Below the pieces are notes generated by a model. The model had not been told where the DNA came from and did no database searches. It saw nothing but the letters and a program-made list of their open reading frames with translations. DNA of 64,000 nt, from NCBI GenBank assembly GCA_012841375.1, contig DUUV01000002.1, positions 17,828 to 81,827 on the forward strand, in the 5' to 3' direction. Shown here piece by piece: positions 20,736 through 34,310 of this stretch (position 1 is the first letter of the stretch; the number at the start of each line of letters is the position of its first letter). Made by a program: the position numbers and the translations under genes. The DNA is from Candidatus Fermentithermobacillaceae bacterium (GTDB taxonomy: Bacteria; Bacillota; Sulfobacillia; Fermentithermobacillales; Fermentithermobacillaceae).

Positions 20736-20883
20736 ACCACTCAACCTCCTTGACATTGAAAAAAGCAATGTTAAAATGCCCAGATATCCAATTCCACATC
20801 GACCCTGAAGATCCTTCAGTAGAGCTCTCTAGCCGGGCAAATTGCGCCTTTACGAATAACTGCCAAGAGGCTTTAGACCCGGC

Positions 20884-21477
20884 CTACAATCCGGTGGAGC
20901 GTGACAGGAGGAGAGGCGATACAAACGCTTCGACGGCCGACGCCAGAAAGAGCCCGGCGGCGACCATTAGGAATCGCCAGGTATAAGTGGCGACCATCTT
21001 CCACAAGCCGCCGTAGTTCCATGGCCGCTCCCTAAGCAGGGCCACCGAGAACGAGATAGACATGGCCGACAGCGAGAGGAGCGCGGGGATCGCGATCAGG
21101 TTGTGGGGCACCATCCCAGAGAGAAACATGGTGAGGCCGCCGGACGTGACCTCGCGCAACAAGAACATGGCTCCAAACCCTGCGGCAAATCCACGCACAA
21201 ATATGAGGACGCACGTGAGCGGCGCTCCGATGACGGCCAGGCCGAATGCCCATATGAAGAGCGCGGTCCGGGCGTTTTGCTCCAGGGATAACCGGAAGAT
21301 CGCCTTTGGGTCAAGCCCCGGGTTGTGGACGCCTCGCATGAAGACTTCGAGATAGGCCACGAGTTCGGCCTTTTCGTCGGGCGAAAGCACGCGGAGTCCT
21401 AAGATGCCCATGACCAGCCCGGAAGCGAACAGCGCCAGCGTCAGGAGCAAAGGAGAGAACTTGAGGGTTCTACGCAT
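20884..21477 (-). CDS. spoIIM: Stage II sporulation protein M
   Basis: 197-aa polytopic membrane protein with SpoIIM-like (DUF95) topology and sequence. Confidence 0.7.
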   Translation of the reverse strand: MRRTLKFSPLLLTLALFASGLVMGILGLRVLSPDEKAELVAYLEVFMRGVHNPGLDPKAIFRLSLEQNARTALFIWAFGLAVIGAPLTCVLIFVRGFAAGFGAMFLLREVTSGGLTMFLSGMVPHNLIAIPALLSLSAMSISFSVALLRERPWNYGGLWKMVATYTWRFLMVAAGLFLASAVEAFVSPLLLSRSTGL

Positions 21478-21543: not shown

Positions 21544-22398
21544 CTAAGACCTATCCCCCGGTTCGGTCTCCGGCTTAGGGGGACCCGGCCTATCCGGCGG
21601 GGCGCCGTCGTCCGTCTTGTCAAAAGGCTTGAGATCGGGCAGTTCCATCTGTCCGGGCCGGTCCTCCGGGGGTGCGGCTACTGGCACCACTCTCTTCGAG
21701 TCGCCGTCCGCGCTCTCCATGGCGCCTGAGGAAATGGGTCTCGGGGGGAGGACTTCCAGACGCCGGTTCATGGCATCGAGGGTAGCTCTCACGCACGCTT
21801 CTCGTATGTCCCTCTTCACCAAAGCGCAGCCAACCAACTGCTCGTGGTTTCTCCGGGGGGTCAGGAGGTCAACGAGAACCGCCACGGCGCTCCTCTCTCC
21901 TATGGTCAGAGTCGTAACGTCGTCGACGAAAAACGCGTTTGGGGGCGTCAGGGTCAGATTTGCCGCGAGGCAAGTTGCCCTGGCCACCCCCAACAGCATC
22001 GCCACTTCAGATGAATCGGTGACGGCTCTACCAACGTAGACCGCGGTCTGTTTCTCAATGGCGCGGTCAAGCGTCACCGCTATCTCCGACTTGCCCGTCC
22101 TCGCGTTCGTCTTCACCTCTATGCCGACGTAACGAATACGCCCGGGCTGAGCGGGAAGGCTCGTCTGGACTTGCGCGACCGACACCTTTCTCCGGTCAAC
22201 AGTAATGTCCCATTGCGCCTTCAACGCGCTCTGGACGTCTCTCACAATCTGCTTGGGGTTTCTGCCCAGTCCGGTGAGGATGTGGATCTCCTCGATGGCC
22301 CCCCAGTCATTCACAACTACCCGTGCCTTCTGAATACCCGGAAGACAAACCAGGAGAGACTCAATATCCCTCACACTCACCGTTTTTTTCTCGCTCAC
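21544..22398 (-). CDS. Hypothetical protein with three tandem divergent ~75-aa modules and a Pro/acidic C-terminal tail
   Basis: ORF with internal repeats (VSVRDIESLLVCLPGIQKARVV… / RIRYVGIEVKTNARTGKSEIAV… / AFFVDDVTTLTIGERSAVAVLV…). No confident family. Lies between korC and spoIIM. Confidence 0.5.
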   Translation of the reverse strand: MSEKKTVSVRDIESLLVCLPGIQKARVVVNDWGAIEEIHILTGLGRNPKQIVRDVQSALKAQWDITVDRRKVSVAQVQTSLPAQPGRIRYVGIEVKTNARTGKSEIAVTLDRAIEKQTAVYVGRAVTDSSEVAMLLGVARATCLAANLTLTPPNAFFVDDVTTLTIGERSAVAVLVDLLTPRRNHEQLVGCALVKRDIREACVRATLDAMNRRLEVLPPRPISSGAMESADGDSKRVVPVAAPPEDRPGQMELPDLKPFDKTDDGAPPDRPGPPKPETEPGDRS

Positions 22399-22430
22399 TA
22401 AGGCTCACCCCAACGGGGATGCCATACGAT

Positions 22431-22988
22431 TCAGGAGCCCTCAGCCATCTTAGCCTTGACGAGCCGGTAGCCTCTCCAAAGCGCCTCTTCGTTGAGCGGG
22501 AGAAGGCTATGGTGCCTCTGGCTTATCACCTTGGGAAGCACCTCTATAACCGTTTCAACCTTGACGATCTCTCGGGCTCCCAGGAGGGCCCCGAGGCAGA
22601 CCATATTGGCGATGCGGTCGGAACCCAGCTCTCTCGCTTCATCATTGGCCGGAATCCTGTAGACTTCGACGTCCCCTCTAATATCTTCGTCTGGAATCAA
22701 CGACGCGTTAACAATCAAAACTCCGCCCGGTTGCACCGCGTTCTTGAACTTGTCGAAGGACGGCCTGTTCATTACTATCGCCGCCGTAGGCTCGACGACC
22801 ACGGGAGAAGCTATCGCGTCTTCAGATACACACACCGCGCAGTTGGCGGTACCTCCACGCATTTCGGGTCCGTAAGAAGGCAGCCAAGATACTGCCTTGC
22901 CTTCTTCCTTGCCGGCGTAGGTCAGGAGAGTCCCTATGAGCATGATACCCTGACCGCCGAAACCTGCCATAATGATCTCGTGGCCCAT
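22431..22988 (-). CDS. vorC: 2-oxoacid:ferredoxin oxidoreductase gamma subunit (VOR/KOR type)
   Basis: MAGFGGQGIMLIGTLL... matches the gamma subunit. Last gene of the delta-alpha-beta-gamma order. Confidence 0.85.
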   Translation of the reverse strand: MGHEIIMAGFGGQGIMLIGTLLTYAGKEEGKAVSWLPSYGPEMRGGTANCAVCVSEDAIASPVVVEPTAAIVMNRPSFDKFKNAVQPGGVLIVNASLIPDEDIRGDVEVYRIPANDEARELGSDRIANMVCLGALLGAREIVKVETVIEVLPKVISQRHHSLLPLNEEALWRGYRLVKAKMAEGS

Positions 22989-22990
22989 GC

Positions 22991-23734
22991 TTACTCTCCC
23001 TCCCCTGTCTTGAACTCACCCAGCGGGTACTCAGGAAGCATATTCTCTTCGAGCCACTTGAGCGCGTTCTGTGGAGTCATACCCCAGTTCGTTGAGCAGG
23101 TTGAGAGTAGTTCGACCAACGAGAACCCTTTCCCTTCGATCTGGTTCTGGAAGGCCTTCTTGATACCCTGCTTGGCTCTCTGGATGTTGGCAGGATTGTG
23201 CAACGAGAACCTGGCCACGTAGTGTGCGCCCTTCACGGTCGCCAGGAGCTCGGACACCTTGACCGGGTATCCCTGGGTCTTTGGATCCCTACCAAAGGGC
23301 GAAGTTGTTGTCTTCTGCCCGACCAGGGTTGTCGGCGCCATCTGTCCGCCGGTCATGCCGTAGATTGCGTTGTTGATGAACACCACGGTGATGTTTTCAC
23401 CGCGGACGGCCGCGTGCACGATCTCGGCCATACCGATGGAGGCCAAGTCGCCGTCGCCCTGGTAGGTGAACACGATGGAGTCCGGAGTGACTCTCTTGAT
23501 TCCCGTGGCCACTGCCGGAGCCCTTCCGTGAGCCGCCTGCTGGAAATCCACGTCGAAGTAATTGTAGGCGAAAACCGAGCAACCTACGGAAGCCACTCCG
23601 ACGGTCTTCCCTTGTATGCCCAACTCATCGATAGTCTCTGCCACGAGACGGTGGGCGATGCCGTGAGGGCATCCGGGGCAGTAGTGAGTGACGACATTGG
23701 TCAGGGATTTGGGGCGCGTGTAGACTGGGATCAC
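22991..23734 (-). CDS. vorB: 2-oxoacid:ferredoxin oxidoreductase beta subunit (TPP-binding)
   Basis: CPGCPHG, then ...QGDGDLASIGMAEIVHAAVRGENITVVFINNAIYGMTGGQ... (TPP / [4Fe-4S] motifs). Confidence 0.9.
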   Translation of the reverse strand: MIPVYTRPKSLTNVVTHYCPGCPHGIAHRLVAETIDELGIQGKTVGVASVGCSVFAYNYFDVDFQQAAHGRAPAVATGIKRVTPDSIVFTYQGDGDLASIGMAEIVHAAVRGENITVVFINNAIYGMTGGQMAPTTLVGQKTTTSPFGRDPKTQGYPVKVSELLATVKGAHYVARFSLHNPANIQRAKQGIKKAFQNQIEGKGFSLVELLSTCSTNWGMTPQNALKWLEENMLPEYPLGEFKTGEGE

Positions 23735-24840
23735 GATTTCCCACCTCCTACTCTGTCGAAGTAGTCGCTCTGGCTCGGGACTCTTCCTTCAATAACGTCC
23801 CGGAGGCGTCGCTCGACCGACCTGGGCGTGGGAACGGCGCCGCCTGTCCTTCCGTAGAAGTAGACCGGCTTCCGCCCGTTGACCGCGAGCCGTACATCTT
23901 CCACCATCTGACCTGTAGACATCTCTACCGTAAGGAACCCCTTGGCCTGACCGACCACCTTCTCGAAAGCCTCGTCGGGGAACGGCCACAGGCTGATGGG
24001 CCTCACCAAACCAACCTTCACTCCGTCCTTGCGGAGTCTCTGGATTACCGACATACAGATCCTGGCGACGGTACCGTAGGCAACGAAGAACCACTCGGCA
24101 TCATCGCCGTGGACTATCTCGTACCGTACCTCGTTCTCCCGAACCTTCCTGTACTTCTCTTCCAGCTTCCAGTTGTGGGTGTCCAGCTCTTCCGGGTCGA
24201 GATAGATCGAGTTGATGAGGTTCGCCTTCCTGCCCTCGTTGCCCGTGGTGGCCCACGGCTTGGCGGGAAGGCCGGCAACGTCCACGACCTCCGGGAAGAC
24301 TACCGGCTCCATCATTTGGCCGATCATCCCGTCGCCCAAGATCATGACGGGGTTCCGGTACTTGTCGGCCACATCAAAGGCGGTAGCCATAAGGTCGCAA
24401 CCTTCCTGAATGGTCGCCGGGGCGAATACTATTATGCGGTAGTCGCCGTGCCCGCCGCCCTTGGTGGACTGGAAGTAGTCTGACTGGGACGGCTGGATGC
24501 CGCCCAAACCGGGACCTCCGCGGGACATATTCACTATGACGCAGGGGAGTTCGGCCCCGGCGATATACGAAATGGCCTCCTGCATGAGACTGATTCCGGG
24601 GCTCGATGACGAGATGAGGACTCTTCCGCCGGCACCGGCGGCTCCGTAGACCATGTTTATGGAAGAAACCTCGCTCTCGGCCTGCACGAAGACGCCCCCG
24701 TGCTCGCCGATCCTTCTCGCCATGTACTCAGAGATCTCATTTTGCGGCGTAATCGGATATCCGAAGTAGAACCTGCAACCGGCGCGAATGGCCGCCTCGG
24801 CCAACGCCTCGTTGCCTTTCATGAGCATGGATTCGCTCAC
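23731..24840 (-). CDS. vorA: 2-oxoacid:ferredoxin oxidoreductase alpha subunit
   Basis: MKGNEALAEAAIRAGCRFYFGYPITPQNEI... matches the alpha-subunit N-terminus. Confidence 0.9.
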   Translation of the reverse strand: MSESMLMKGNEALAEAAIRAGCRFYFGYPITPQNEISEYMARRIGEHGGVFVQAESEVSSINMVYGAAGAGGRVLISSSSPGISLMQEAISYIAGAELPCVIVNMSRGGPGLGGIQPSQSDYFQSTKGGGHGDYRIIVFAPATIQEGCDLMATAFDVADKYRNPVMILGDGMIGQMMEPVVFPEVVDVAGLPAKPWATTGNEGRKANLINSIYLDPEELDTHNWKLEEKYRKVRENEVRYEIVHGDDAEWFFVAYGTVARICMSVIQRLRKDGVKVGLVRPISLWPFPDEAFEKVVGQAKGFLTVEMSTGQMVEDVRLAVNGRKPVYFYGRTGGAVPTPRSVERRLRDVIEGRVPSQSDYFDRVGGGKS

Positions 24841-24855
24841 TTACCTCCACCTCCT

Positions 24856-25074
24856 CTATTGCGGTCTTCTTACCTCTATGACGGCATCAGGACACATCCT
24901 GGCGCACAAGGCGCAAGAGATGCACTTATCCTGGTCTTCATCGCTGACGAAGGCCGGATGATAGCCCTGGCGGTTTAGCTCGGTCCTGAGTTTGATTATC
25001 TTCTTTGGACAAATACCGACACAGAGCTCGCAGCTCTTGCAGTGGTCCTCGTTGAAAACGACTCTCTTCTCCAT
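24856..25074 (-). CDS. vorD: 2-oxoacid:ferredoxin oxidoreductase delta subunit (2x[4Fe-4S] ferredoxin)
   Basis: CKSCELCVGICP and CISCALCARMCP motifs. ATG at 25074. Confidence 0.8.
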   Translation of the reverse strand: MEKRVVFNEDHCKSCELCVGICPKKIIKLRTELNRQGYHPAFVSDEDQDKCISCALCARMCPDAVIEVRRPQ

Positions 25075-25097
25075 ACGTCTCCCTCCCATCCGCCGGA

Positions 25098-25778
25098 TCA
25101 TTCTGTGGTTTCCCAAGGCTTGAGCAGGTGACGCTCAAGGTACAGCGGGGGGACCCCGCCAAGGACCTTTGCCAGCCCTTCGTCTCGCGATTTGAGCCAA
25201 TCCGGGACTCCCACCATGACCACCGGGAGACCCAGGCAGAGGCCAAGAGACCCGGTGAATTCCAGGCCCTTCGCGATATGCTCGATTCGGGTCGACTCAC
25301 CGAGGTGCGTGTTTGACACCAGCCCTCCAGGAGGAAGTCCGGCCGACGATGTAACCCCTCGCACTGCTTCTTGAGCTTCGTCCAGAGTCCTGGAGAACGG
25401 CCTCATCGCGTTCACCACAAACAGCCCTCGGGCGTCGGGCCTCAGCGCGTCTTTCAGTCCACCCAAAACCCTGGCACCTGTCGGGTCGCCGCCTACATCG
25501 ACGACAACATCTCCTTCACCCTGCAAGAGGACTGTGCGAATGCCCTCCGGCAGCACCGGAAGGTCGGCATGGCGGATAGAATCCTTGGGCGACACAACGT
25601 TGACACCCGCCGCCAAGAGCCGCTCTCTAACGTCTCTCACTCTGAAGTAGGGCGTTACGGCGTCGAGATCGACAATGGTGACGGCCCGTCCTTTCTCGGC
25701 CAAACGGAGGGCGTAGTTGATGGATACCTCTGACTTGCCGCTTCCGTACAGGCCGTAGAACACAGTCACTTCAGACAA
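25098..25778 (-). CDS. P-loop NTPase of unknown function (Walker A GLYGSGKSE)
   Basis: Likely TTG start at 25778 (AGAAGGGG RBS 8 nt upstream), overlapping the upstream buk-like gene by 8 nt. Walker A near the N-terminus. Confidence 0.5.
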   Translation of the reverse strand: MSEVTVFYGLYGSGKSEVSINYALRLAEKGRAVTIVDLDAVTPYFRVRDVRERLLAAGVNVVSPKDSIRHADLPVLPEGIRTVLLQGEGDVVVDVGGDPTGARVLGGLKDALRPDARGLFVVNAMRPFSRTLDEAQEAVRGVTSSAGLPPGGLVSNTHLGESTRIEHIAKGLEFTGSLGLCLGLPVVMVGVPDWLKSRDEGLAKVLGGVPPLYLERHLLKPWETTE

Positions 25779-26805
25779 CGTCAGGACCCCTTCTCTCTGA
25801 ATGTGATAGCAGGCTCTCGGCAGTAAGGGCCGCCGACCCTTCCCGGGCCAGCACCCGCATGCAATCGTCTTGCGCGACGCAAGCGACCCTGCACCACTTG
25901 GCCACTCTCTCCTCAATGCCCGATAGAAGCAGATCCAGTGAAGCCCCCGGACCCGTAAGCACGATGACCTCGGCGCGTCCTTTGAGCGCGGCCATCGCCC
26001 GGCCGATCTCCTTGGAGACCTGGTAGGCCATGGCTCTTACGGCCCGTGTGGCTTGGAGGCTCTCGCGGGCAAGCTCCCGCCGGAGTTCAGTCATGGAAGT
26101 CACTCCGGCATAGGCGAAAACACCCGATCGCCGCTTCAGACTCTCCCGTATCTCGTCGCCGGAACCGGATCCCCTCCCGGTCTCATCGAGCCAGTCGATG
26201 AACGCGGTGGCAGGTAGAGTCCCCGCGCCGGTCATTCCGAAGGGACCTTCGCAGGCTATGGGGTCTCCTGTAGCCATCGCGCGCGACCCGTGGTGGGACG
26301 CTACCGAAACCTCATCGCCCAGATATGCCGAAATCCCCCGGGCGACTTCCGGGTCGAGTCCGAGGGACGCGCATGCTGAAACAAAAGCCGGTCGCTCAGG
26401 AAAAGCGTAGTAGATGCCGCGCCTCTCCACCATGGTACTTCCTGTGAACCTTGCCTCCTCAGGAAGCACGACGGAGGACATGGGATCCACTGCCACGCCC
26501 GGAATTCCGTGTCGCCGGCAATACTCGAAAGCGCGGACTGTCATCCGATTCCTGGGATGCCAACCGGCAAGTCTCGCGGCATCTTCTGCCATGCGCTCAT
26601 CAATCGGGTAGGTCCCCGGTGAGCACGGCGCGTAGTAACCACCGGCTATGACAATGCCCGACGGGCAAGCTCCGTACCGTCCCTCGAACCACCCGAAGGG
26701 GTCCACCGAAGGGCGAAGCGTGTGAAGCTCCGCTTCGCCGCCCGGAGCGAGGACCGCGACCCGGACTTCTGAGAAGCCCGGGTCTATGGCCAAGACCTCT
26801 GTCAT
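25771..26805 (-). CDS. ASKHA-superfamily kinase, divergent butyrate-kinase paralog
   Basis: MTEVLAIDPGFSEVRVAVL... and C-terminal ...EVIVLTGPGASLDLLLSGIEERV... align with Buk motifs (LVVNPGSTSTK... / ...VVLTGGLANSADFVAMVRE...) but are degenerate. Confidence 0.6.
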   Translation of the reverse strand: MTEVLAIDPGFSEVRVAVLAPGGEAELHTLRPSVDPFGWFEGRYGACPSGIVIAGGYYAPCSPGTYPIDERMAEDAARLAGWHPRNRMTVRAFEYCRRHGIPGVAVDPMSSVVLPEEARFTGSTMVERRGIYYAFPERPAFVSACASLGLDPEVARGISAYLGDEVSVASHHGSRAMATGDPIACEGPFGMTGAGTLPATAFIDWLDETGRGSGSGDEIRESLKRRSGVFAYAGVTSMTELRRELARESLQATRAVRAMAYQVSKEIGRAMAALKGRAEVIVLTGPGASLDLLLSGIEERVAKWCRVACVAQDDCMRVLAREGSAALTAESLLSHSERRGPDVV

Positions 26806-27866
26806 TTCGGAAGGTACATCCCTTTTTGGGCGAGGGCTTTGGCGATTCGTTCTTCGGCGACCATGTCGGCCGCTTCATGGGTTCCAACGCCCTTCTCCTC
26901 GGCAGTCTTGAATACCTTGAGGGCGGTATTGTATATGCCCTCGACTTTCTTGAGAGCGCGTTCACGGTTGTAGCCGCCGACATTAACCTCATCGGCAACG
27001 TTGATTACGCCTCCACCGTTGGCGATGAAGTCGGGAACATAGAGAATCCCCTTGTCTGCCAGGACCTTTCCATGCCTGGGCTCTAGGAGCTGGTTGTTGG
27101 CCGAACCGCACACGATGGAAGCTTTGAGTCTCGGCACAGTCTCATCGTTGATCACCGCACCCAGGGCGCAAGGCGCGAAAATGTCGCACTCCTGGTCGAA
27201 TACCTCGTCCACCGGTACCGAGACCGCGCCGATCTTTACGGCCTCCTGAACCTTGTCCGGGAAGATATCCGACACGAAGACCTTGGCACCGGCGTCAATC
27301 AGCCGCTTGACCAGGGCGAGCCCTACCGCGCCAACGCCCTGCACCGTGACAGTCTTTCCCGAAAGGTCGTCGCTTCCGAAGATCTTAAAGACCGCGGCCT
27401 GCATGGCTTTGAAAACCCCGTACGCAGTCACAGGAGAGGGGTCGCCGCTGGTGTCCGCCAGACCCTTGACGTGGGGCGTCTCGGTCCTGATGATGGCCAT
27501 ATCATCTGTGGTCGTGCCCACGTCTTCAGCAGTGATGTACCTTCCGCCCAGGGAGTGTACGAACCGGCCGAAAGCCCTGAACATCTCCTCGCTCTTGTCG
27601 GTCCTGGGATCGCCGATTATGACGGCCTTTCCTCCACCTATGTTGAGTCCCATGGCCGAGTTCTTGTAGGTCATACCTCGGGAAAGCCTCAGGACGTCAA
27701 ACAAGGCCTCCTCCTCGGTCTTGTACGGCCACATCCTGGTGCCGCCCAGCGCGGGGCCCAAGGTGGTGTCGTGAATACCGATTATCGCCTTGAGTCCCGA
27801 AGTCTTGTCATAGCAGAAAACTACCTGCTCATGCCCGTACTCTGCCATGCTCTCCAGTACTTTCAC
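26802..27866 (-). CDS. ldh: Leucine dehydrogenase (Glu/Leu/Phe/Val dehydrogenase family), copy 1
   Basis: MKVLESMAEYGHEQVVFCYDKTSGLKAIIGIHDTTLGPALGGTRMWPY... matches B. subtilis Bcd. Confidence 0.85.
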   Translation of the reverse strand: MKVLESMAEYGHEQVVFCYDKTSGLKAIIGIHDTTLGPALGGTRMWPYKTEEEALFDVLRLSRGMTYKNSAMGLNIGGGKAVIIGDPRTDKSEEMFRAFGRFVHSLGGRYITAEDVGTTTDDMAIIRTETPHVKGLADTSGDPSPVTAYGVFKAMQAAVFKIFGSDDLSGKTVTVQGVGAVGLALVKRLIDAGAKVFVSDIFPDKVQEAVKIGAVSVPVDEVFDQECDIFAPCALGAVINDETVPRLKASIVCGSANNQLLEPRHGKVLADKGILYVPDFIANGGGVINVADEVNVGGYNRERALKKVEGIYNTALKVFKTAEEKGVGTHEAADMVAEERIAKALAQKGMYLPK

Positions 27867-27883
27867 AGTTCTCTTCCTCCTCC

Positions 27884-28783
27884 TCAGATTAAGGCTCTGG
27901 CCATCGCGATGGAATTGAGTTTCACCTGGGCCGTATCAGCCCTGGATATGACAACCACCGGCGCGGCAGCCCCGACTATAACTCCGCCCATGACAGCGCG
28001 GGCGAAGTACTGCATGCTCTTGGCGATGCTGTTGCCTGAGACAACATCCGGCGCCACAAGCACGTCGGCCCGTCCCGGAACCTGTCCGGTCATGCCCTTT
28101 ATGCTTGCGGCCTCGGGCGATACCGCGGCGTCCAGTGCCATTGGCCCTTCCACGAACGCTCCGGGGAAGCGGCCCTCTCTCGACATCCGGGCAAGCTCCA
28201 CCGCATGCACGCTGGCTTCGGAATCAGGATTGGGCACCTCAGAAGGCGCCAGCACCGCCACTCTGGGCGTCTCCACTCCCATGAGCCGGGCCACATCGAT
28301 GGCGTTGGACACAATCTCCGCCTTCTTTGGAAGGTCCGGGCGCAATACGACACCGCCGTCGGTCACGAAGATGAAGCGGTCATAGCCCGGCACTTCCAGA
28401 CATGCAACGTGGCTCAATATCCGCCCGGTCCTCAGGCCTTCTTCCCTATCCAAGACCGCCTTCATGAGGCTCCCGGTCCCGATCTTGCCTTTCATCAGGA
28501 TCCGGCACGTACCCTCACGGACAAGGCGTGTTCCTGCTCTCGCGGACTCCAGGGGGCCCTGGGCTTCCACAATGACGGGATTCTGAAGCCGCGCGCCCGA
28601 GGACTCTATCGCCCTTTCTATCTTGTCAGGATCGCCCATCAAGAACGGCAGCGCGAACCCCTCAGATTCGGCTTCGGCCAGGGCCAGCAGGGCTTCTTCG
28701 TCGAAAGCCTCAACAAGGCTGATGCCGACGCTCCCCATTCTCTTTACTCTCTCGCGGAAACCGTAGAACAGGTGGCTCATCAA
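27884..28783 (-). CDS. ptb: Phosphate butyryl/branched-chain acyltransferase
   Basis: Pta/Ptb family (…LPFLMGDPDKIE…, …ISRADTAQVKLNSIA…). Overlaps buk. Confidence 0.85.
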   Translation of the reverse strand: MMSHLFYGFRERVKRMGSVGISLVEAFDEEALLALAEAESEGFALPFLMGDPDKIERAIESSGARLQNPVIVEAQGPLESARAGTRLVREGTCRILMKGKIGTGSLMKAVLDREEGLRTGRILSHVACLEVPGYDRFIFVTDGGVVLRPDLPKKAEIVSNAIDVARLMGVETPRVAVLAPSEVPNPDSEASVHAVELARMSREGRFPGAFVEGPMALDAAVSPEAASIKGMTGQVPGRADVLVAPDVVSGNSIAKSMQYFARAVMGGVIVGAAAPVVVISRADTAQVKLNSIAMARALI

Positions 28784-29862
28784 ACCGCCTCCGTCTCAGG
28801 ATAGACGCGGGTGGTTTCTTCCCCGCGGAGCACCCGAAGGGCTCCGGCAGCCAGCGCCTCCATTTCGTCCTCTCCCGGGTAGACCAAATGCCTCCCGAGG
28901 AAACCCGTATACTCCCTGACCATTGCCACGAAATCCGCCGAATTCGCCAGTCCTCCGGTCAAGACCACGGCGTCGAGTTTTTCGGGGTAACTGGCAGCCA
29001 TGGCGCATATCTCCTGAGCTACGCCAAAAGCCAGGCCCTCCCACACGACTCTCGTGTGTCTGTCTTCTTTGGCCTTCTTCTCTACGGCCCGCGCGTCTTT
29101 GGTTCCCAGATAACCGAACATCCCCGACCTTGAGGTAAGGCGGTGCTTCAGTTCGCGACCACCGAGTCTCCTCCAGAGCTCCAGCAAGGCCAAAGCAGGA
29201 AGCGTCCCGGCCCTCTCAACCGTGAAAGGGCCCTCCTCGTTTGAGTTGTTTACATCTCTCATGGCCCCCCGGTAGAACGGGCATATTGAGAAGCCGCCTC
29301 CAAGGTGCGCTATAACCAGATAGAGGCCCGCGAGATCCCTCCCCAAGTCCCTTGACGCTCTCCTGGCGCAGGCGCGGATGTTCAGGGCGTGCAGCAGGCT
29401 CTTCCTCGGGATCGAGGGAAACCCCGATAGCCTCGCTTCAGGGCCTAACTCGTCCACCGAGACCGCGTCCACGATGAACGAAGGGATCCGGCCCTCCGAA
29501 GAAAGTTCCCATGCGATAAGGCCACCCAGATTGGCTGCGTGCCGCCCGCCTACGCCGTCTCGGAGATCGGCGACCATCGCCTCGTTGACGAGATAGGCGC
29601 CCGATCTCACCGGTCTCAACAGTCCTCCCCGCGCCACGATCCCAACGAGCGATCCGGGACCTATCCCATGCTCCTTAAGGAACTCTCTTACCATCCGGAC
29701 CCTGTGCGGGAGCTGGTCGATTACCTCCCTAGAAGTCGCCCAGGGCGCCCCGGAATGGTCAAGGGAAGCGCCCGCGACGACGGTCTCGCCGCGGTAGAGA
29801 GCAACCTTCGTTGACGTCGATCCCGGATTTACCACCAGCAACAGCTCACCGGTCAATGCCAA
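28780..29862 (-). CDS. buk: Butyrate / branched-chain fatty-acid kinase
   Basis: LLLVVNPGSTSTKVALY...IDAVVLTGGLANSADFVAMVREYTGFLGRHLVYPGEDEMEALAAG matches canonical Buk. Confidence 0.9.
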   Translation of the reverse strand: MALTGELLLVVNPGSTSTKVALYRGETVVAGASLDHSGAPWATSREVIDQLPHRVRMVREFLKEHGIGPGSLVGIVARGGLLRPVRSGAYLVNEAMVADLRDGVGGRHAANLGGLIAWELSSEGRIPSFIVDAVSVDELGPEARLSGFPSIPRKSLLHALNIRACARRASRDLGRDLAGLYLVIAHLGGGFSICPFYRGAMRDVNNSNEEGPFTVERAGTLPALALLELWRRLGGRELKHRLTSRSGMFGYLGTKDARAVEKKAKEDRHTRVVWEGLAFGVAQEICAMAASYPEKLDAVVLTGGLANSADFVAMVREYTGFLGRHLVYPGEDEMEALAAGALRVLRGEETTRVYPETEAV

Positions 29863-29874
29863 TTCCTTCTCCCT

Positions 29875-30948
29875 CTACGTCATGGTTGCTTTGAGTCTTA
29901 GTACTCCGGCGATCCGCTCTTCTACCATCCGGGTCGCCGCCAGTTCAGTGTTGATGCCTTCGCGCTTTGAAATAGTGAATATCGTCTTCAACAGTGAGGG
30001 AATCCGTTCCACCTTCAGCCTCGCCCGCTCTTTGTTGAACCCGAGAAGCTCATCGGCAACCTGAATGACCCCACCTGCGTTTACCACATAGTCAGGAGCG
30101 TACAGAATGCCCCGCCTGTAGAGCCTTTCGGCATCATCAGGCGTCGCCATCTGATTGTTCGCGCCGCCGCAGACGATCCCGCATTTGAGAAGCGGTATGG
30201 TCTTCTCGTTGAGGACTGCGCCCAGCGCGTTTGGGGAAAACACGTCGGCCTGGACCGACAGTATGTCTTCGGGATCTACGTAGGTGCCCCCGACCTCTTC
30301 GGCAACTCTGAGGGCTACATCTTTTCGCACGTCCGTCAGGACGACGGAAGCTCCCGCTTCACTCAGGTGACGGCAGACCTTTGAGCCAACCTTGCCGGTC
30401 CCCTGGACGGCCACCTTCACACCTTTGAGGTCGCTCTTACCGGTCGCTTCCAAGACACTGGCCCCTATCGCCAGGAAAACGCCGTATGCCGTGAGGACAG
30501 AGGTATCGCCGCTGCCGCCGTATTCGACAGGCAAGCCCACCACATACTTGGTCTCGGAACCGACATCAACGAAGTCCGCTGAGTATGTGCCCACATCGGT
30601 GCCGGTGATGAATCTTCCTTTCAGTCCCTCGATAAACCGACCGTACGCTCTGAGCAGGAGCTCGTCTTTGTCCTTCTCCGGATCTCCCCAGATAATCCCC
30701 TTCACTCCGCCGTGATGAAGGCCGCTGGCTCCTGATTTCAGCGTCATACCCTTAGAGAGCCTAAGGGCGTCAATCACGGCTTCCTCCTCTGACGCGTAAG
30801 GATACATTCGGGTACCGCCCAAAGGCGGTCCCAGCGTGGAATCATGGAACGCTACAATGGACTTGAGTTTTCCGCCTGCCTTGTCCCGGAAAAACATGAC
30901 CTGCTCGTGGCCTTCCGCGGCCATCTTCTTGAAGAGGTCCAAGCGCAT
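29875..30948 (-). CDS. ldh2: Leucine dehydrogenase, copy 2
   Basis: MRLDLFKKMAAEGHEQVMFFRDKAGGKLKSIVAFHDSTLGPPLGGTRMYPY... ATG at 30948. The longer ORF to 31113 has no support. Confidence 0.85.
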   Translation of the reverse strand: MRLDLFKKMAAEGHEQVMFFRDKAGGKLKSIVAFHDSTLGPPLGGTRMYPYASEEEAVIDALRLSKGMTLKSGASGLHHGGVKGIIWGDPEKDKDELLLRAYGRFIEGLKGRFITGTDVGTYSADFVDVGSETKYVVGLPVEYGGSGDTSVLTAYGVFLAIGASVLEATGKSDLKGVKVAVQGTGKVGSKVCRHLSEAGASVVLTDVRKDVALRVAEEVGGTYVDPEDILSVQADVFSPNALGAVLNEKTIPLLKCGIVCGGANNQMATPDDAERLYRRGILYAPDYVVNAGGVIQVADELLGFNKERARLKVERIPSLLKTIFTISKREGINTELAATRMVEERIAGVLRLKATMT

Positions 30949-31115
30949 CCCTCCACGAATTGTTCTCACCCGGATACAAGCAAGACTCATGCCGGATCTC
31001 CGGGGCGCGATGGTCGCGCTCCCGACACTCGTTGCCAGTCGCAAACATCCGCTCACCAGGGGAACGTCTCGGGTGCAAGCCTCCGGGAGAAGCGGCCTTC
31101 CCTCCGGGGTCATAT

Positions 31116-31145
31116 GCAGTGACTTTCACATATGCAAGTCACTGC
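31116..31145. promoter_or_regulatory. Perfect 10-bp inverted repeat (GCAGTGACTT-N10-AAGTCACTGC), candidate regulator-binding / upstream activating site
   Basis: Seen directly in the sequence, ~170 bp upstream of the ldh2 start and immediately downstream of the sigma54-activator gene. Confidence 0.45.
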
Positions 31146-31195
31146 ACGCAGGACCCGTCAAACCGGGGGCGGCCGCACGCCCCGAGTCCGAGAGA

Positions 31196-32965
31196 TCAAC
31201 ATCGGTCCTTTGCCTCGAGTTCCTTGATGCCGTACCGCTCAAGCTTGTTGTAGAGACTCCTTAGGCTGATGCCCAAGAGCCGCGCGGCCTTTGTCTTGTT
31301 GTTCCCGGTCTTCTGAAGTGCGCTCAGGATGGTCGCCCGCTCCGCGCTATCCACCGCCTCCCTGAGGCTTCCTGCGATCAGCGTAGGCGCCGGCCCAACC
31401 GGTCCCATATCTCCTTCGGCCGCTCTCCCCAGTCTCTCGCCTCCCATAGACATGGGCGGCAGGTGCTCCGGCAGGATGACCGTCTCCTGGAACTTCATGT
31501 TCATCATCGCCCTGCCGATGACGTTCTCCAGTTCCCTCACATTGCCCGGCCACCTGTAGGTCTTGAACACCTCCATCACCTGGGGGCTTACGCTTTCCAC
31601 GGAGCGCCCGTATTCCTGGTTGAGCTTCTTGAGAAGCCGTTCGCAGAGGAACGGGAGGTCGTCTGTACGCTGCCTGAGCGGCGGAATGAAGATGGGAATA
31701 ACGTTTAGACGATAGTATAGGTCCTCCCTGAACCGGCCCTCCGCCACCAACTGCTCCAACGAGACGTTGGTGGCGGCTATTACGCGAACGTTGACGGGGG
31801 TAGGCTTGGAGTCGCCCACTCTCATGATCTCCTTCTCCTGAAGGACTCTGAGGAGCTTTGCCTGCAGCGCAAGATTCGTGACCCCAACTTCATCCAAGAA
31901 CAGGGAGCCGCCTTCCGCTTCCTCGAACAAACCCTTCCTGCCGCCTCGCTTGGCGCCGGTAAAGGCGCCGTCGACGTATCCAAAGAGCTCGGACTCAAGC
32001 AGACTCTCGCTGAGCGCCGCGCAGTTCACCCTCACGAACGGCTTATTCCTCCTGGGCGAGGCGCTGTGGATGGCGTGAGCGAAGAGCTCTTTGCCTGTCC
32101 CGCTCTCTCCCCGTAGGAGGACCGTCGCCGTCGTGGACGCCACTCTCCTTGCCTGTTCCACCGCCTGTGAGACCAGAGGGTTGACCGACACCACTTCTTC
32201 AAACGTGTACTTGGCCTCAAGCTGTCTCACGATCTTCTTCATACGGTCGAGTTCCTCTGTGAGGCGTATGATCTCAGACACGTCACGGACAACTCCCACG
32301 CTGCCCTTAAGCTCGTCACCGACGAACACGGGGTCTACCGAGACCACGACCTGCCTGCGCATGGGTCCTACCCTCATGGGCACGTTCTTCACCGGCTGCC
32401 TGGTCCTCAAAACCTGCATATGCATGCTGGGGCCCTCGGCTATGTCGACCGTGGCCGGCTTCCCTATCACGTCCTTTTCGGTTAGCCCCGTGAGCCTGGT
32501 GTAGGCCTGGTTGATGAGGAGACCGTTTCCGTTTGCGTCGGCAACCGAGATCGCGTCTTGGGTGGCTCCAATGATGGCGGTCAGAAACGACTGGATCTCC
32601 CTTAGGTTCGTGATCTGTCCTGCCAAATTCTGGACCTCGGTTAGGTCCCGGAAGACGGCGACAGCCCCGACGACCTTTCCGCTCTCGTCTCGCACAGGCA
32701 CCCTGTTGGTGATGATCTCCGTCGTCCCTACCGACTGCCTTTGGTTCAGCTGGGCCTCGCCCGTATCCAAGACCTCATCGAGCTTCGTCGTGGCTATCAC
32801 GTCCCGGACGTGAGCGCCCATCACATCAGAGGCTTTCTTGCCGAGTATCTTCTCTGCCGAAGGGTTGAAGACAAAGACATGACCGGAGGCGTCAACCGCC
32901 ACTATTGCATCGTGAGTAGCGTTTAGGATGAGATCAAGCAGTCTGACTCGTGCAGAATCCTGCAC
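31196..32965 (-). CDS. bkdR: Sigma-54-dependent transcriptional activator with two PAS domains (BkdR/AcoR-like enhancer-binding protein)
   Basis: Central AAA+ sigma54-interaction domain (GESGTGKE...GAFTGA...). C-terminal Fis-type HTH ...KTKAARLLGISLRSLYNKL... Probable GTG start at 32965 (GGAGGTG RBS). The ORF drawn from 32995 uses TTG. Confidence 0.85.
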   Translation of the reverse strand: MQDSARVRLLDLILNATHDAIVAVDASGHVFVFNPSAEKILGKKASDVMGAHVRDVIATTKLDEVLDTGEAQLNQRQSVGTTEIITNRVPVRDESGKVVGAVAVFRDLTEVQNLAGQITNLREIQSFLTAIIGATQDAISVADANGNGLLINQAYTRLTGLTEKDVIGKPATVDIAEGPSMHMQVLRTRQPVKNVPMRVGPMRRQVVVSVDPVFVGDELKGSVGVVRDVSEIIRLTEELDRMKKIVRQLEAKYTFEEVVSVNPLVSQAVEQARRVASTTATVLLRGESGTGKELFAHAIHSASPRRNKPFVRVNCAALSESLLESELFGYVDGAFTGAKRGGRKGLFEEAEGGSLFLDEVGVTNLALQAKLLRVLQEKEIMRVGDSKPTPVNVRVIAATNVSLEQLVAEGRFREDLYYRLNVIPIFIPPLRQRTDDLPFLCERLLKKLNQEYGRSVESVSPQVMEVFKTYRWPGNVRELENVIGRAMMNMKFQETVILPEHLPPMSMGGERLGRAAEGDMGPVGPAPTLIAGSLREAVDSAERATILSALQKTGNNKTKAARLLGISLRSLYNKLERYGIKELEAKDRC

Positions 32966-33044
32966 AAAAAACACCTCCGCCTGTGAATTCAACAAGCGGA
33001 GGGTGTAGTCCTCTAACCTGCACTAACTTGCACAATTTACCGGA

Positions 33045-33809
33045 TCAGGCACCCAGTCTAAGCCTGTCGGCCACCATGGCGATGAACTCGGAGTTGGTCG
33101 GTTTGCCTTTCTCCTGGCTGATGGTGTGCCCGAAGACCCTCTGGATAAACTCCATGTTCCCCCGGTCCCAGGCAACCTCGATCGCGTGGCGTATGGCTCT
33201 CTCAACACGGCTGGGAGTGGTGGTGTATCGCTGAGCAATGGTGGGATAGAGTTCTTTGGTTATCTTTGACAGGAGATCGACCCGGTCTACCACCATAATG
33301 ATAGCGTCGCGGAGGTACAAATAGCCCTTTATATGGGCAGGGATTCCCAGTTCGTGCATCATGGTGGTTACACGGGAATCCTGGCTCTTGTCTCTCTCTC
33401 TGACCGACGGAGCAGGTCTTGGAGAGGCCCCCTCCTTCGACCACAGCTGTCGAAGCCTCTCCGCGAGGATGTTGAGATCAAAAGGCTTCAATATGTAGTA
33501 GTCGGCCCCCAGCTCCACGACCCTGTGAGTGATTGATTCCTGCCCAAACGCGGTAAGCATCACAATCTTGGGGCGCGTTGACGCATCCTCCTTGGCCAGT
33601 CGCTCGAGGACACCGATCCCGTCCAGATACGGCATGATGATGTCAAGGACCACGATGTCGGGCTTGAGCTCCTGAATGGACTCCAGCGCCTCCACGCCGT
33701 TATACGCCACGCCTGCGACCTCGATGTCATCCTGTTTTTCCAGAAACTCGCGAAGTAGACCCACGAATTCTTTGTTGTCGTCAACCACAAGGACCCGCAT
33801 TTTCCGCAT
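33045..33809 (-). CDS. spo0A: Sporulation master response regulator Spo0A
   Basis: [12 protein letters not shown]...DIIMPYLDG... receiver domain. C-terminal Spo0A-specific region ...[17 protein letters not shown]...[16 protein letters not shown]... GGGGGAG RBS. Confidence 0.9.
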
Positions 33810-34055
33810 CCGGTGACTCCCCCTGATTTCGCGACGATAACACCAGCCGCGTGTACTTACAAACTATTCCAGGACAAATCTTACCATCTGGCTACATCGT
33901 TGACAATACAAGCCCGAGACTTAATGTCAAAAATTGGTTGCATCGGGCTGCCTGAGACCTAGATCCGAGTCGTTTGCCGGGGGAAGGCTAACGTTTACAG
34001 GCGATCCTCTCGAATATGGCACTGACGACCAGCGCAGAAAGGCTCGCCGGATGGG

Positions 34056-34310
34056 GTGTTTGGCATGGAAGTCGGCCCGAAGGACCTCACTGAGGCAACT
34101 CAGGCAATGGAAAGCTACAGGGAACGACTTGTAGGTTTGGTCGCGTCAGGGCGCTCAATGACAGACATGGATGTAGTGAGGTTGTCTCAAGAGGTCGACC
34201 GGTGTATCAACCTCATCTACCGGTTGTCGCACGCTTCCGCCGGGCCCGGCGCCAACTTGGCAAGAGCCGCCCCGGCCTCTGGCAACTCCACCGTGCCGCT
34301 CAGCATATAG
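34056..34310 (+). CDS. Spo0E-like sporulation regulatory phosphatase family protein (candidate)
   Basis: ...MESYRERLVGLVASGRSMTDMDVVRLSQEVDRCINLIYRL matches the Spo0E-family motif (…LSQeLDxlI…Y). Plus-strand ORF, convergent with spoIVB and overlapping its 3' end. ATG at 34065 as an alternative start. Confidence 0.45.
   Translation: MFGMEVGPKDLTEATQAMESYRERLVGLVASGRSMTDMDVVRLSQEVDRCINLIYRLSHASAGPGANLARAAPASGNSTVPLSI

Follow-up and report, generated by a model that had tools for sequence, protein, structure and literature searches.

The window analysed here is a 64,000-nucleotide stretch of a Ca. Fermentithermobacillaceae MAG. It carries a bkd-like locus whose genes all lie on the minus strand between spo0A and spoIIM (Table 1), with recN, spoIVB and spo0A as upstream neighbours and spoIIM, ald, xerD and a D-Ala-D-Ala carboxypeptidase gene downstream. 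The gene order, the coordinates and an 8-nt gene overlap given by an earlier sequence-only reading were all correct when the window was re-read. That reading had also described an operon of the sigma-54/BkdR type that carries a four-subunit 2-oxoacid:ferredoxin oxidoreductase (VOR) instead of BCKDH E1/E2/E3, together with leucine dehydrogenase (LeuDH), Ptb and Buk, and the domain and family matches uphold this description. Based on its predicted gene products, the locus is a sigma-54-controlled operon for the anaerobic breakdown of branched-chain amino acids (BCAA).

Table 1. Features of the bkd-like locus, from the activator to the last gene.
Feature	Position in window	Strand	Description
BkdR-like sigma-54 enhancer-binding protein	31196..32995	-	PAS-PAS-AAA+-HTH_8 (Pfam); coordinates of the longest ORF
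Perfect 11-bp inverted repeat	31115..31146	-	TGCAGTGACTT-N10-AAGTCACTGCA; ~120 nt upstream of the -24 element
Sigma-54 type -24/-12 promoter element	30979..30994	-	CGGCATGAGTCTTGCT; GG and GC invariants kept; 31 nt upstream of the ldh2 ATG
ldh2	29875..30948	-	More divergent Leu/Val/Phe-type amino-acid dehydrogenase; ELFV_dehydrog_N + ELFV_dehydrog
buk	28780..29862	-	Canonical butyrate (branched-chain acyl) kinase; NF002834 402 bits (cut-off 222)
ptb	27884..28783	-	Phosphate butyryl/branched-acyl transferase; PTA_PTB 145 bits (Pfam)
ldh1	26802..27866	-	Leucine dehydrogenase; ELFV domains; leucine dehydrogenase 3vpx 452 bits
Degenerate butyrate-kinase paralogue (ASKHA)	25771..26805	-	344 aa; buk2 slot; NF002834 167.6 bits (cut-off 222)
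P-loop NTPase, SIMIBI class	25098..25778	-	226 aa; TTG start; heads the P-loop/delta/alpha/beta/gamma VOR module
vorD	~24856..25074	-	2x[4Fe-4S] ferredoxin-like delta subunit; Fer4_7, Fer4, Fer4_21 (Pfam)
vorA	23731..24840	-	VOR alpha subunit; NF005507 568.7 bits (cut-off 399); POR_N, PFOR_II
vorB	22991..23734	-	VOR beta subunit, binding TPP and a [4Fe-4S] cluster; TPP_enzyme_C; TIGR02177 120 bits
vorC	22431..22988	-	VOR gamma subunit; POR 115.6 bits; NF006323 and TIGR02175 matches
LeuA-allosteric-like protein	21544..22398	-	284 aa; AF2 pLDDT 84

Pfam searches identified two PAS stretches, Sigma54_activat (233 bits), AAA_lid_14 and HTH_8 in the activator. Its true start probably lies ~20 codons downstream of the TTG of the longest ORF, because a terminator-like hairpin of spo0A (32974-33002) overlaps that TTG; the orthologues are 573-579 aa long. 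The -24/-12 element ahead of ldh2 (TGGCAYG-N4-TTGCT) stands at the same relative position in 8/8 orthologous loci. Such elements are not enriched across the whole window, so it is position and conservation that carry weight. The inverted repeat further upstream is a candidate binding site of the activator, and no exact palindrome of this kind was found in the other orthologous loci. The BkdR-like protein would switch on the sigma-54 promoter ahead of ldh2.

The two dehydrogenases share 47% identity. For ldh2, which starts at an ATG with a GGAGGG ribosome-binding site, the best solved relative is leucine dehydrogenase 6acf (383 bits). All catalytic motifs are kept in Buk, which also matches TIGR02707 with 368 bits (cut-off 289). 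The ptb gene overlaps the buk stop by 4 nt, and its product scores 292 bits against TIGR02706, under the equivalog cut-off of 410. Within the VOR genes, the vorD start was set at the ATG at 25074 in an ORF that reaches 25116, and vorB (beta) overlaps the alpha stop by 4 nt; the NCBIfam name for the alpha-subunit family is 'VorB'. The route proposed earlier, from BCAA through keto-acid, acyl-CoA and acyl-phosphate to fatty acid plus ATP, holds by homology: both leucine-type dehydrogenases would deaminate Leu, Ile and Val, the delta-alpha-beta-gamma VOR would oxidise 2-oxoacids to acyl-CoA while reducing ferredoxin, and Ptb and Buk would turn acyl-CoA into branched-chain fatty acid and ATP. We infer the substrate specificity of the VOR clade, of both LeuDH paralogues, of Ptb and of Buk from sequence.

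The last gene encodes a 284-aa protein with no Pfam match. It had been described as a triple-repeat protein, which is no more than roughly right; the model holds one N-terminal alpha-beta-beta-alpha-beta domain and two beta-beta-beta-alpha units, not three repeats, followed by a disordered Pro/Asp-rich tail. The two units superpose on the LeuA allosteric domain (PF08502), including leucine-bound 3fig (E 3e-6 to 2e-5), and the top five Foldseek matches are M. tuberculosis LeuA (best E=3e-6). PF08502 is the commonest weak Pfam match in the family (6 of 21 homologues); for the 284-aa protein the sequence similarity is sub-threshold and leucine binding is predicted at most. Unlike LeuA, the protein stands alone, without the catalytic TIM barrel, and adds an N-terminal ferredoxin-like domain and the disordered tail. 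Its gene follows vorC in L003, L007-L009, L011 and L016 and follows ldh in a Sulfobacillus MAG, while in Desulfitobacterium the context is unrelated. The modelled fold suggests a candidate BCAA or keto-acid sensor.

The degenerate ASKHA gene overlaps the ldh1 stop by 4 nt, and its product is 29% identical to Buk. The closest solved relative is T. maritima butyrate kinase 2 (1SAZ/1X9J, E=4e-27, residues 49-306), compared with which it lacks PHOSPHATE1, PHOSPHATE2, the ADENOSINE motif, the catalytic Arg, His and Glu, and a ~22-residue segment of the N-terminal domain. The motifs NPGSTSTK, RGG, HxGGG, ER, TGG and GExE are all replaced in ~27 homologues, which have the new motifs YLGDEVSV, CEGPFG and GPGAS in common. 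A recent pseudogenising duplicate, which the sequence-only reading had considered, does not match what was found: the family comprises ~27 clusters, with identities down to 36%, confined to one Bacillota lineage. The aligned sequences indicate a gene that has lost all phosphoryl-transfer and nucleotide-binding motifs and is still kept under selection, and its product is probably a pseudoenzyme. By position, the gene corresponds to buk2 of the buk1-ptb-buk2-P-loop-vorDABC arrangement, which is widespread. The same operon in L011 has an intact buk2 in this slot, and intact Buk genes occupy it in Clostridium, Thermotogota (L061 and L070, again upstream of P-loop and VOR genes), Atribacterota and Negativicutes. 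The ASKHA protein would most likely be a non-catalytic partner that scaffolds or regulates Buk or the P-loop protein.

The single true unknown of the operon is the small nucleotide-binding protein encoded just upstream of the VOR, which occurs in many phyla and has never been characterised. Its gene shares exactly 8 nt with the end of the ASKHA gene, and its Walker A motif is GLYGSGKSE. Membership of a known housekeeping family had been raised earlier, and profile searches match no such named family: in Pfam, ParA (20.3, threshold 27.1) and CbiA (17.9, threshold 25.4) are sub-threshold, every one of 339 close homologues is labelled 'hypothetical', and none of the clusters at 50% identity (at least 976 at E<1e-30, 2179 at E<1e-10) is named. 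Because the Walker A Lys, DxD and Walker B DxGG are invariant across the homologues, the protein is probably an active NTPase. The fold of the AF2 model (pLDDT 85) is of the SIMIBI class, with best Foldseek matches to ATPase-type HypB (top match 5auq, E=4e-8, TM ~0.53), SRP GTPases and MinD. The protein shares Walker A, DxD and DxxG with HypB/Mrp/MinD-class ATPases, but it has neither the signature lysine of a deviant Walker A (KGG) nor a CxxC or other conserved Cys. The homologue alignment contains no conserved cysteine, so the protein cannot hold an Fe-S cluster or metal in the way of Mrp/NBP35, CooC or NifH. The family further differs by its own invariants (GSGK[ST]E, PYFRxR, RPF[TS], NTH and a C-terminal PW).

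Scanning species-representative genomes gave at least 517 matches to the P-loop protein, and the best 80 loci were examined. Among the 76 of these loci that were not cut by a contig end, 65, from at least 12 phyla, have vorD-A-B-C immediately downstream; the best 80 include such loci from Bacillota, Acidobacteriota, Zixibacteria, WOR-3, Ignavibacteria, Planctomycetota, Chloroflexota, Thermotogota, Atribacterota, Desulfobacterota and Calditrichota. In the reverse search, started from VorB, 47 of the 59 metagenomic VOR operons of this clade that could be evaluated have the P-loop gene in front. Most P-loop-VOR operons have neither ptb nor buk. The median gap between the P-loop stop and the vorD start is 21 nt, and the adjacency holds even in delta-beta-gamma-alpha order (L038, L085, L127, L137). 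Pairwise distances of the P-loop protein correlate with those of VorA, VorB and VorC at 0.69-0.79, which is the range among the Vor subunits themselves. Given this genomic linkage, the P-loop gene is likely to be functionally linked to this VOR clade. It is not obligatory in cis, since it is missing from 12 of the 59 operons even by HMM search (7 of the 12 form one subclade). Conversely, between spo0A and spoIIM Negativicutes have either buk-P-loop or just the P-loop gene and lack a neighbouring VOR, the gene stands alone in L024, L039 and L063, and in one Bacillota lineage it is fused to the FolC C-terminus; this fusion lies in a valS-folC-SPOR context, keeps every family motif and is conserved in four clusters. 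No fusion joins the P-loop protein to a Vor subunit.

We tentatively propose that the P-loop protein is an NTP-driven accessory factor of the VOR clade with a mechanism of assembly or maturation, most likely a switch for assembly or cofactor loading that would act on the delta subunit or the holoenzyme. The proposal is made by analogy with ATPase-type HypB and other MinD/Mrp-class maturation ATPases, and the gene has the same operon association with a metallo- or Fe-S enzyme as in the logic of HypB, CooC and NifH. A VOR-specific chaperone role does not obviously explain the FolC fusion. The conserved fusion and the stand-alone genes would fit a SIMIBI small-molecule enzyme (for example an ATP-dependent kinase or ligase resembling BioD or the N-domains of CTP synthase or Pta) that makes or modifies a metabolite or cofactor for VOR, Buk and FolC and does not act on a protein partner. 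Consistent with such an enzyme, the invariant polar residues E17, R46, R48, N123, R126 and H158 ring the predicted nucleotide site, and the Foldseek matches include CTP synthase ATPase domains. We nevertheless consider it unlikely: we can name no candidate substrate, the fold matches to enzymes (TM 0.44-0.53) are weaker than those to HypB, SRP and MinD-type switches, and so constant a position beside the delta-subunit gene would sooner be expected of a protein partner.

The ASKHA and P-loop proteins had been presented as one functional pair, and they could form a two-component kinase/NTPase unit that acts on acyl substrates or acyl-phosphates and is tied to Buk/Ptb, not VOR. Their genes overlap in the window, and any buk or ASKHA gene in the slot directly upstream of the P-loop gene is tightly coupled to it, often overlapping (gaps mostly -55 to +18 nt). 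A residual pairing signal also comes from Negativicutes, where buk-P-loop is retained without VOR, and in Chloroflexota L055 and L067 the P-loop gene lies between two ptb genes. However, in many phyla the P-loop gene adjoins vorDABC without ASKHA or Buk, and most loci consist of P-loop-vorDABC without buk, ptb or ASKHA. The ASKHA family, at the buk2 position in its one Bacillota lineage, is ~30-fold smaller than the P-loop family, Thermanaeromonas has buk-ptb-P-loop-vorDABC without a second ASKHA gene, and the ASKHA protein retains no residue needed for phosphoryl transfer. A joint unit therefore seems quite improbable, and the pair is better read as two separate issues.

We give very little credence to the idea that the P-loop protein senses the nucleotide state or phosphorylates proteins, like the MinD-related bacterial tyrosine kinases, and tunes VOR/Buk flux to energy charge. 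It shares the Walker A, A' (DxD) and B motifs of the MinD/BY-kinase group, its N-terminal part weakly matches the HMMs of BceF and CapB, and its gene sits at the junction of the ATP-yielding (ptb/buk) and redox (vor) modules; but these matches span just ~45 residues around the P-loop, the protein has no tyrosine cluster or activator domain, and we know of no precedent for OFOR regulation by phosphorylation. Scarcely credible is the view that the gene serves sporulation or cell division and is just a neighbour of the VOR operon in Firmicutes: the gene lies within the spo0A-spoIIM region, a SPOR-domain gene comes next after the FolC fusion, and the C. difficile protein CD0114, which is uncharacterised and ATPase-like, was found in a proteome study of vegetative cells and spores and reportedly shares 25% identity with CD3298, an ATPase linked to germination (bioRxiv 10.1101/598045), but the distribution largely refutes this, as most carriers belong to non-sporulating phyla and still have the gene adjoining vorD.

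Taking the preferred readings of the P-loop and ASKHA proteins together with the rest, we lean towards the locus being the anaerobic counterpart of the Bacillus bkd operon, in the same chromosomal place between spo0A and spoIIM. The spo0A ... spoIIM synteny is common to the window, L003, Negativicutes and Sulfobacillus, and the Bacillus operon also lies near spo0A, between spo0A and spoIIM. Like the B. subtilis operon (bkdR-ptb-bcd-buk-lpdV-bkdAA-bkdAB-bkdB), the window has a PAS/AAA+/HTH sigma-54 activator, a leucine-type dehydrogenase, Ptb and Buk. Where B. subtilis has BCKDH E1/E2/E3, the window has the ferredoxin-dependent delta-alpha-beta-gamma VOR, and its extra genes are the two LeuDH genes, a probably dead Buk paralogue, the P-loop gene and the LeuA-allosteric-like gene.

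The structural-gene core and its order are those of clostridial and Thermotogal buk1-ptb-buk2-(P-loop)-vorDABC operons, and buk-ptb-buk-P-loop-vorDABC is seen in L045, L048, L061, L070, L071, L080 and L168. The clostridial operons include CD0112-CD0118 of C. difficile, with CD0115 as the ferredoxin and CD0116-0118 as the alpha, beta and gamma subunits of a VOR to which isovalerate formation has been ascribed (PMC3933415). Its position and published description point to CD0114 as a member of the P-loop family and a probable orthologue. In the clostridial and Thermotogal operons buk2 is intact, whereas in the window it is degenerate, and the window adds two ldh genes and the activator in cis.

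The locus for branched-chain amino-acid fermentation comprises 12 co-directional genes on the minus strand, running from 32995 to 21544. Its gene order as given by the earlier sequence-only reading was borne out by ORF listing, translation and searches with Pfam and NCBIfam (table below). The ldh1 and ldh2 products have leucine dehydrogenases as their nearest solved structures (452 and 383 bits). VOR, a 2-oxoacid:ferredoxin oxidoreductase (OFOR) with delta, alpha, beta and gamma subunits, shows all four subunit features of the bacterial VOR-type (NF005507) clade: alpha scores above the cut-off, beta carries a TPP domain, gamma is a POR-domain protein and delta has a pair of 4Fe-4S motifs. From the family name, the co-location with leucine dehydrogenase, Ptb and Buk genes, and the assignment made in C. 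difficile, we infer that this VOR prefers branched-chain 2-oxoacids. The route from branched-chain amino acids to 2-oxoacids and then, through VOR, to acyl-CoA, followed by Ptb and Buk, is established in Stickland-type and thermophilic fermenters (PMC6384274). The operon as a whole is of an ordinary, already known kind. The genes flanking it (17235-21477 and 33045-37475) read recN-spoIVB-spo0A ... spoIIM-ald-xerD-dacF-like, which is a conserved neighbourhood of sporeformers. In Bacillus, the bkd operon occupies the same spo0A-spoIIM region.

Genes of the branched-chain amino-acid fermentation operon, in order along the minus strand
Gene	Coordinates	Strand	Product and matches
activator	31196-32995	-	PAS-PAS-Sigma54_activat-AAA_lid-HTH_8
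ldh2	29875-30948	-	ELFV dehydrogenase
buk	28780-29862	-	canonical butyrate kinase; NF002834 402 bits vs cut-off 222
ptb	27884-28783	-	PTA_PTB transferase
ldh1	26802-27866	-	second ELFV dehydrogenase; 47% identity to ldh2
ASKHA	25771-26805	-	weak butyrate-kinase relative; NF002834 167.6 bits vs 222; 29% identity to buk
P-loop	25098-25778	-	226 aa; ParA/CbiA matches all sub-threshold
vorD	24856-25074	-	Fer4_7; two CxxCxxCxxxCP motifs
vorA	23731-24840	-	alpha; NF005507 568.7 bits vs 399; POR_N, PFOR_II
vorB	22991-23734	-	beta; TPP_enzyme_C
vorC	22431-22988	-	gamma; POR domain
hyp284	21544-22398	-	284 aa; no Pfam hit

The activator combines a Sigma54_activat AAA+ domain (233 bits), an HTH_8 domain (49 bits) and two PAS stretches (Pfam). 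The interval between its gene and ldh2 is the sole sizeable intergenic gap of the operon. It contains CGGCATGAGTCTTGCT (30979-30994), which keeps the GG and GC invariants of sigma-54 promoters and lies 31 nt upstream of the ldh2 ATG; this ATG has GGAGGG just before it. For all eight orthologous loci examined, TGGCAYG-N4-TTGCT was the best match at the equivalent position. Across the window the consensus was not enriched (14 matches against 22.6 expected, with two mismatches allowed), so it is position and cross-locus conservation that support this site. About 120 nt upstream of the promoter, a perfect 11-bp inverted repeat, TGCAGTGACTT-N10-AAGTCACTGCA (31115-31146), is a candidate binding site for the activator; no exact palindrome was kept at this repeat in the orthologous loci. 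A strong terminator-like hairpin followed by a T-run (32974-33002) stands directly after spo0A. Because it overlaps the TTG of the longest activator ORF, the true start is probably about 20 codons downstream; activator orthologues are 573-579 aa long.

The ASKHA protein (344 aa) and the P-loop protein had been read as one functional pair, and the 8-nt overlap of the P-loop TTG start with the ASKHA stop was seen again here. The pair as a functional unit was not supported. Because the P-loop gene stands upstream of vorDABC in many phyla without buk, we separated it into a widespread, uncharacterised VOR-linked NTPase and a lineage-specific, apparently dead Buk. For the species scan, one genome was used per species; at least 517 P-loop matches were confirmed, and 80 loci were kept, onto which the window proteins were mapped. 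The sequence-only reading had proposed to test the co-occurrence of the pair with vor, ptb and buk; for the P-loop gene, co-occurrence with vor was found from both directions. Starting from the P-loop gene, vorD-A-B-C followed directly in 65 of 76 loci (of the 80, excluding those cut by a contig end), with a median of 21 nt between the P-loop stop and the vorD start. The carriers include Bacillota, Acidobacteriota, Zixibacteria, WOR-3, Ignavibacteria, Planctomycetota, Chloroflexota, Thermotogota, Atribacterota, Desulfobacterota, Calditrichota and others. For instance, the locus of Ca. Fermentithermobacillus has the same arrangement as the window, and Thermanaeromonas toyohensis has activator-buk-ptb-P-loop-vorDABC with the second ASKHA gene absent. 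In a Phycisphaerae genome, NuoE/NuoF-like genes come after P-loop-vorDABC, and ptb and buk are absent; two genes upstream of its P-loop gene, of 411 aa and 89 aa, gave no family match. Where the subunit order is delta-beta-gamma-alpha (L038, L085, L127, L137), the P-loop gene still abuts vorD.

Starting instead from VorB in metagenomes, we found the P-loop gene in 47 of 59 evaluable operons. The other 12 lacked it upstream, also by HMM search. Seven of these belong to one VorA subclade (L144, L152, L161, L162, L169, L142, L150) and five are scattered (L136, L139, L156, L160, L167); one of the latter, L156, reads buk-ptb-buk-vorDABC. In the operons lacking the P-loop gene, no substitute gene recurred and the HMM found no cryptic copy. 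Given the 47 operons with the gene and the 12 without, it is frequent and ancestral-looking, yet not obligatory in cis. Pairwise distances of the P-loop protein correlate with those of VorA, VorB and VorC at 0.69-0.79, against 0.76-0.83 among the Vor subunits, which shows that the P-loop and Vor proteins are co-inherited as a module, though these correlations are not independent of the species tree.

The VOR-linked loci vary in their other genes. Acidobacteriota-type loci (the four with delta-beta-gamma-alpha order, and L164 and L165) read P-loop-vorD-vorB-vorC-vorA, so that vorA has moved and the adjacency to vorD is kept. About 17 loci (the Phycisphaerae locus L005:11445-15054 and 16 more) continue after P-loop-vorDABC with NuoE-like, NuoF-like and Fer2/Fer4 genes, an extension that hints at a form of this VOR linked to NAD(P)H and possibly bifurcating. 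Two loci from Chloroflexota/Anaerolineae (L055:6096-8641 and L067:5112-8719) read ptb-P-loop-ptb-vorDABC, with the P-loop gene between ptb paralogues and buk absent from the locus.

Profile searches of the P-loop protein, also proposed in the sequence-only reading, led to no named family. Neither Pfam, NCBIfam nor the family profile against the PDB supplied a name, and all matches were sub-threshold and centred on Walker A. ParA (PF10609; 20.3 vs 27.1 bits) and CbiA (PF01656; 17.9 vs 25.4 bits) missed their gathering scores and covered about 40 residues around the P-loop. The best PDB match of the family profile (E=2e-4) was to the N-terminal part only of the Mrp-like protein 2ph1, and the matches to PDB sequences, from proteins of the Mrp, ArsA, FleN and MinD types, are confined to ~40-60 residues around the P-loop. 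The family itself is large: a word-indexed search returned 339 homologues, all labelled hypothetical, and in an exhaustive profile search of clusters at 50% identity, 976 had E<1e-30 and 2179 had E<1e-10. Among 20 diverse homologues, G9, G12, G14, K15, D37, D39, D94, G96 and G97 are invariant; they belong to Walker A (GxxGSGK[TS]E), Walker B (DVGGD) and the DxD that follows strand 2. The motifs PYFRxR, ADLP, RPF[TS], NTH and a C-terminal PW are specific to the family. The AF2 model (pLDDT 85, pTM 0.87) has a SIMIBI-class alpha/beta fold. Foldseek against the PDB placed ATPase-type HypB at the top (E=4e-8), followed by SRP GTPases (Ffh/FtsY), MinD, NifH and the ATPase domain of CTP synthase (E to 6e-6), with TM-scores of merely 0.44-0.61. 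On these comparisons of motifs, profiles and folds, the P-loop protein forms a separate family inside the known SIMIBI class.

What might such an NTPase do beside VOR? On the reading that we prefer, from gene linkage and by analogy with maturation ATPases, the P-loop protein would be an NTP-driven accessory factor of VOR, serving in assembly, cofactor loading or gating, and it would act most plausibly through the delta subunit. We propose only tentatively, and with some doubt, that in this family a widespread clade of bacterial OFORs has a so far overlooked accessory subunit or maturase that depends on NTP. In some lineages, the protein may work with the butyrate kinase or pseudo-butyrate kinase.

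Contexts outside VOR have to be weighed against this proposal. Between spo0A and spoIIM, Negativicutes (Lucifera, Sporomusa, Veillonellaceae, Selenomonadales) have just buk-P-loop or a solitary P-loop gene; Nudix and other genes come next, and VOR and ptb are absent within the locus. These loci look like an eroded remnant of the operon. In three further loci the P-loop gene stands in unrelated contexts. Moreover, four cluster representatives of 667-681 aa (P0302, P0310, P0329, P0334) are fusions of a FolC-type Mur ligase to a C-terminal P-loop domain (loci L089-L092, e.g. L089:7001-9046), in which every family motif is intact; their context is conserved in Bacillota MAGs as valS/PEPCK-folC::P-loop-SPOR followed by sensory-hydrogenase regulator genes. 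Because of the Negativicutes loci, the unrelated contexts and the fusions, none of which fits neatly, two alternatives stay alive: the P-loop protein might be a small-molecule enzyme, or its function might be shared with Buk. Two other candidates fell away. A carrier of Fe-S clusters or metal of the Mrp, CooC or NifH type is ruled out, as no Cys is found among the invariant or nearly invariant columns (n=20), and a G3E GTPase (UreG, HypB, MeaB), suggested by the resemblance of DVGGD and NTH, is backed by no search result, NKxD and metal-binding motifs both being missing.

Among the Negativicutes, the locus of Lucifera butyrica (L068:4744-10113) and six others (L010, L018, L026, L028, L030, L050) have an intact buk with the P-loop gene, whereas buk is missing from L062. 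Downstream of buk/P-loop, these loci continue with a Nudix gene and a gene for a 400-aa protein blank in Pfam.

For C. difficile, isovalerate formation is assigned to CD0115, a ferredoxin, together with CD0116-0118, the alpha, beta and gamma subunits of VOR (PMC3933415). From its position directly before these genes, CD0114 is a probable orthologue of the P-loop gene; the literature mentions it solely for its 25% identity to an ATPase, CD3298 (bioRxiv 10.1101/598045). We found no publication addressing the P-loop family, and this mention and the CD0115-0118 assignment are the leads that the literature offers.

The ASKHA protein falls below both butyrate-kinase cut-offs (for TIGR02707, 134.5 vs 289.1 bits), and its first 50 residues are unaligned in the NF002834 and TIGR02707 matches. 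Its nearest solved structure, T. maritima Buk2 (1SAZ/1X9J, E=4e-27), places it within the ASKHA fold on the Buk side. In the window protein, PHOSPHATE1 has changed from NPGSTSTK to DPGFSEVR, PHOSPHATE2 from HxGGG to YLGDE and ADENOSINE from TGG to TGP; among the catalytic Arg/Glu motifs, RGG reads AGG, ER reads TG and GExE reads QDD. The same holds across the family of ~27 homologues (DPGFSEVR-like; AGG/PGG; YLGDE; TS/TG for ER; (T/C)GP; xDD/xDL for GExE), where VDPxxVDE has also lost its DE. All of the 30-odd canonical Buks used in the comparison retain the PHOSPHATE1, PHOSPHATE2, ADENOSINE and catalytic motifs, and against them the N-terminal domain has a ~22-residue deletion. Judged by its sequence, the ASKHA protein is most likely a pseudoenzyme that has lost catalysis yet is maintained as a gene.

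A recent, unconserved pseudogene, one of two outcomes that the sequence-only reading had named as fatal to its case, is ruled out by intact ORFs of similar length in ~27 clusters, found only in uncultured Bacillota, down to 36% identity, and by new conserved motifs (WHPRN, YLGDEVSV, CEGPFG, GPGAS, KW). The slot directly upstream of the P-loop gene holds an intact Buk in Clostridium, Thermotogota, Atribacterota and Negativicutes, and one Bacillota MAG (L011) has exactly the architecture of the window, but with an intact buk2 in this slot. By position, the window ASKHA gene therefore corresponds to buk2. From the tight gene coupling, our guess is that its product serves Buk or the P-loop protein as a scaffold or regulator.

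The last gene, hyp284, has 117 homologues, all hypothetical; one deposited sequence, from a Candidatus Fermentithermobacillaceae MAG, is identical to it. It follows vorC in the relatives of the window, stands after ldh in a Sulfobacillus MAG where VOR is absent, and lies in an unrelated context in Desulfitobacterium; its occurrence without VOR in these two rules it out as a regular member of the VOR module. The predicted structure (pLDDT 84) has an N-terminal alpha-beta-beta-alpha-beta (ferredoxin-like) domain, two beta-beta-beta-alpha units of the kind that make up the regulatory domain of LeuA (strands 88-128 with helix 131-147, and strands 155-193 with helix 198-214) and a disordered Pro/Asp-rich tail. 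The sequence-only reading had described a triple repeat, which was approximate: repeated units are present, but there are just two, beside a distinct N-terminal domain. The top five Foldseek matches were all M. tuberculosis LeuA (probability 1.00), with a TM-score that is low (0.30) because merely ~180 of the 284 residues align; the aligned columns are presumably the C-terminal allosteric leucine-binding domain of LeuA. PF08502 gave no hit to hyp284 itself in Pfam and weak hits in 6 of 21 homologues (best E=0.006), and it is the most common weak Pfam match in the family. On the model, hyp284 is a candidate stand-alone sensor of leucine or a branched-chain ligand.

None of the three proteins changes the overall reading of the operon, which remains ordinary. 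OFORs are central in anaerobic carbon and amino-acid metabolism, and they are in general regarded as self-sufficient TPP/Fe-S enzymes. If the accessory-factor proposal were true, this VOR would, to our knowledge, be the first OFOR with assembly, cofactor loading or activity driven by nucleotide hydrolysis. An NTPase gene directly upstream of one OFOR clade in many phyla, with the pathogen C. difficile probably among the carriers (CD0114, upstream of the isovalerate-forming VOR), suggests that these enzymes have a requirement or a control step so far unstudied. Such a step could account for trouble with heterologous expression of these enzymes, and would offer a handle on branched-chain fatty-acid production by gut and digester communities. 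The ASKHA protein would add a conserved, dead butyrate kinase to the metabolic pseudoenzymes of bacteria.

Compared with known systems, the P-loop family differs from MinD/ParA in lacking the signature lysine of the deviant Walker A (xKGGxGK[ST]), having G-x-Y/F-G-S-G-K-[TS]-E instead, and from Mrp/NBP35/ApbC (CxxC), CooC (CxC) and NifH (cluster Cys) in having no conserved Cys ligands. The LeuA-allosteric-like hyp284 would, if our reading holds, be a stand-alone leucine sensor, differing from LeuA in that the domain stands by itself and is joined by a ferredoxin-like domain at its N-terminus and a disordered tail.
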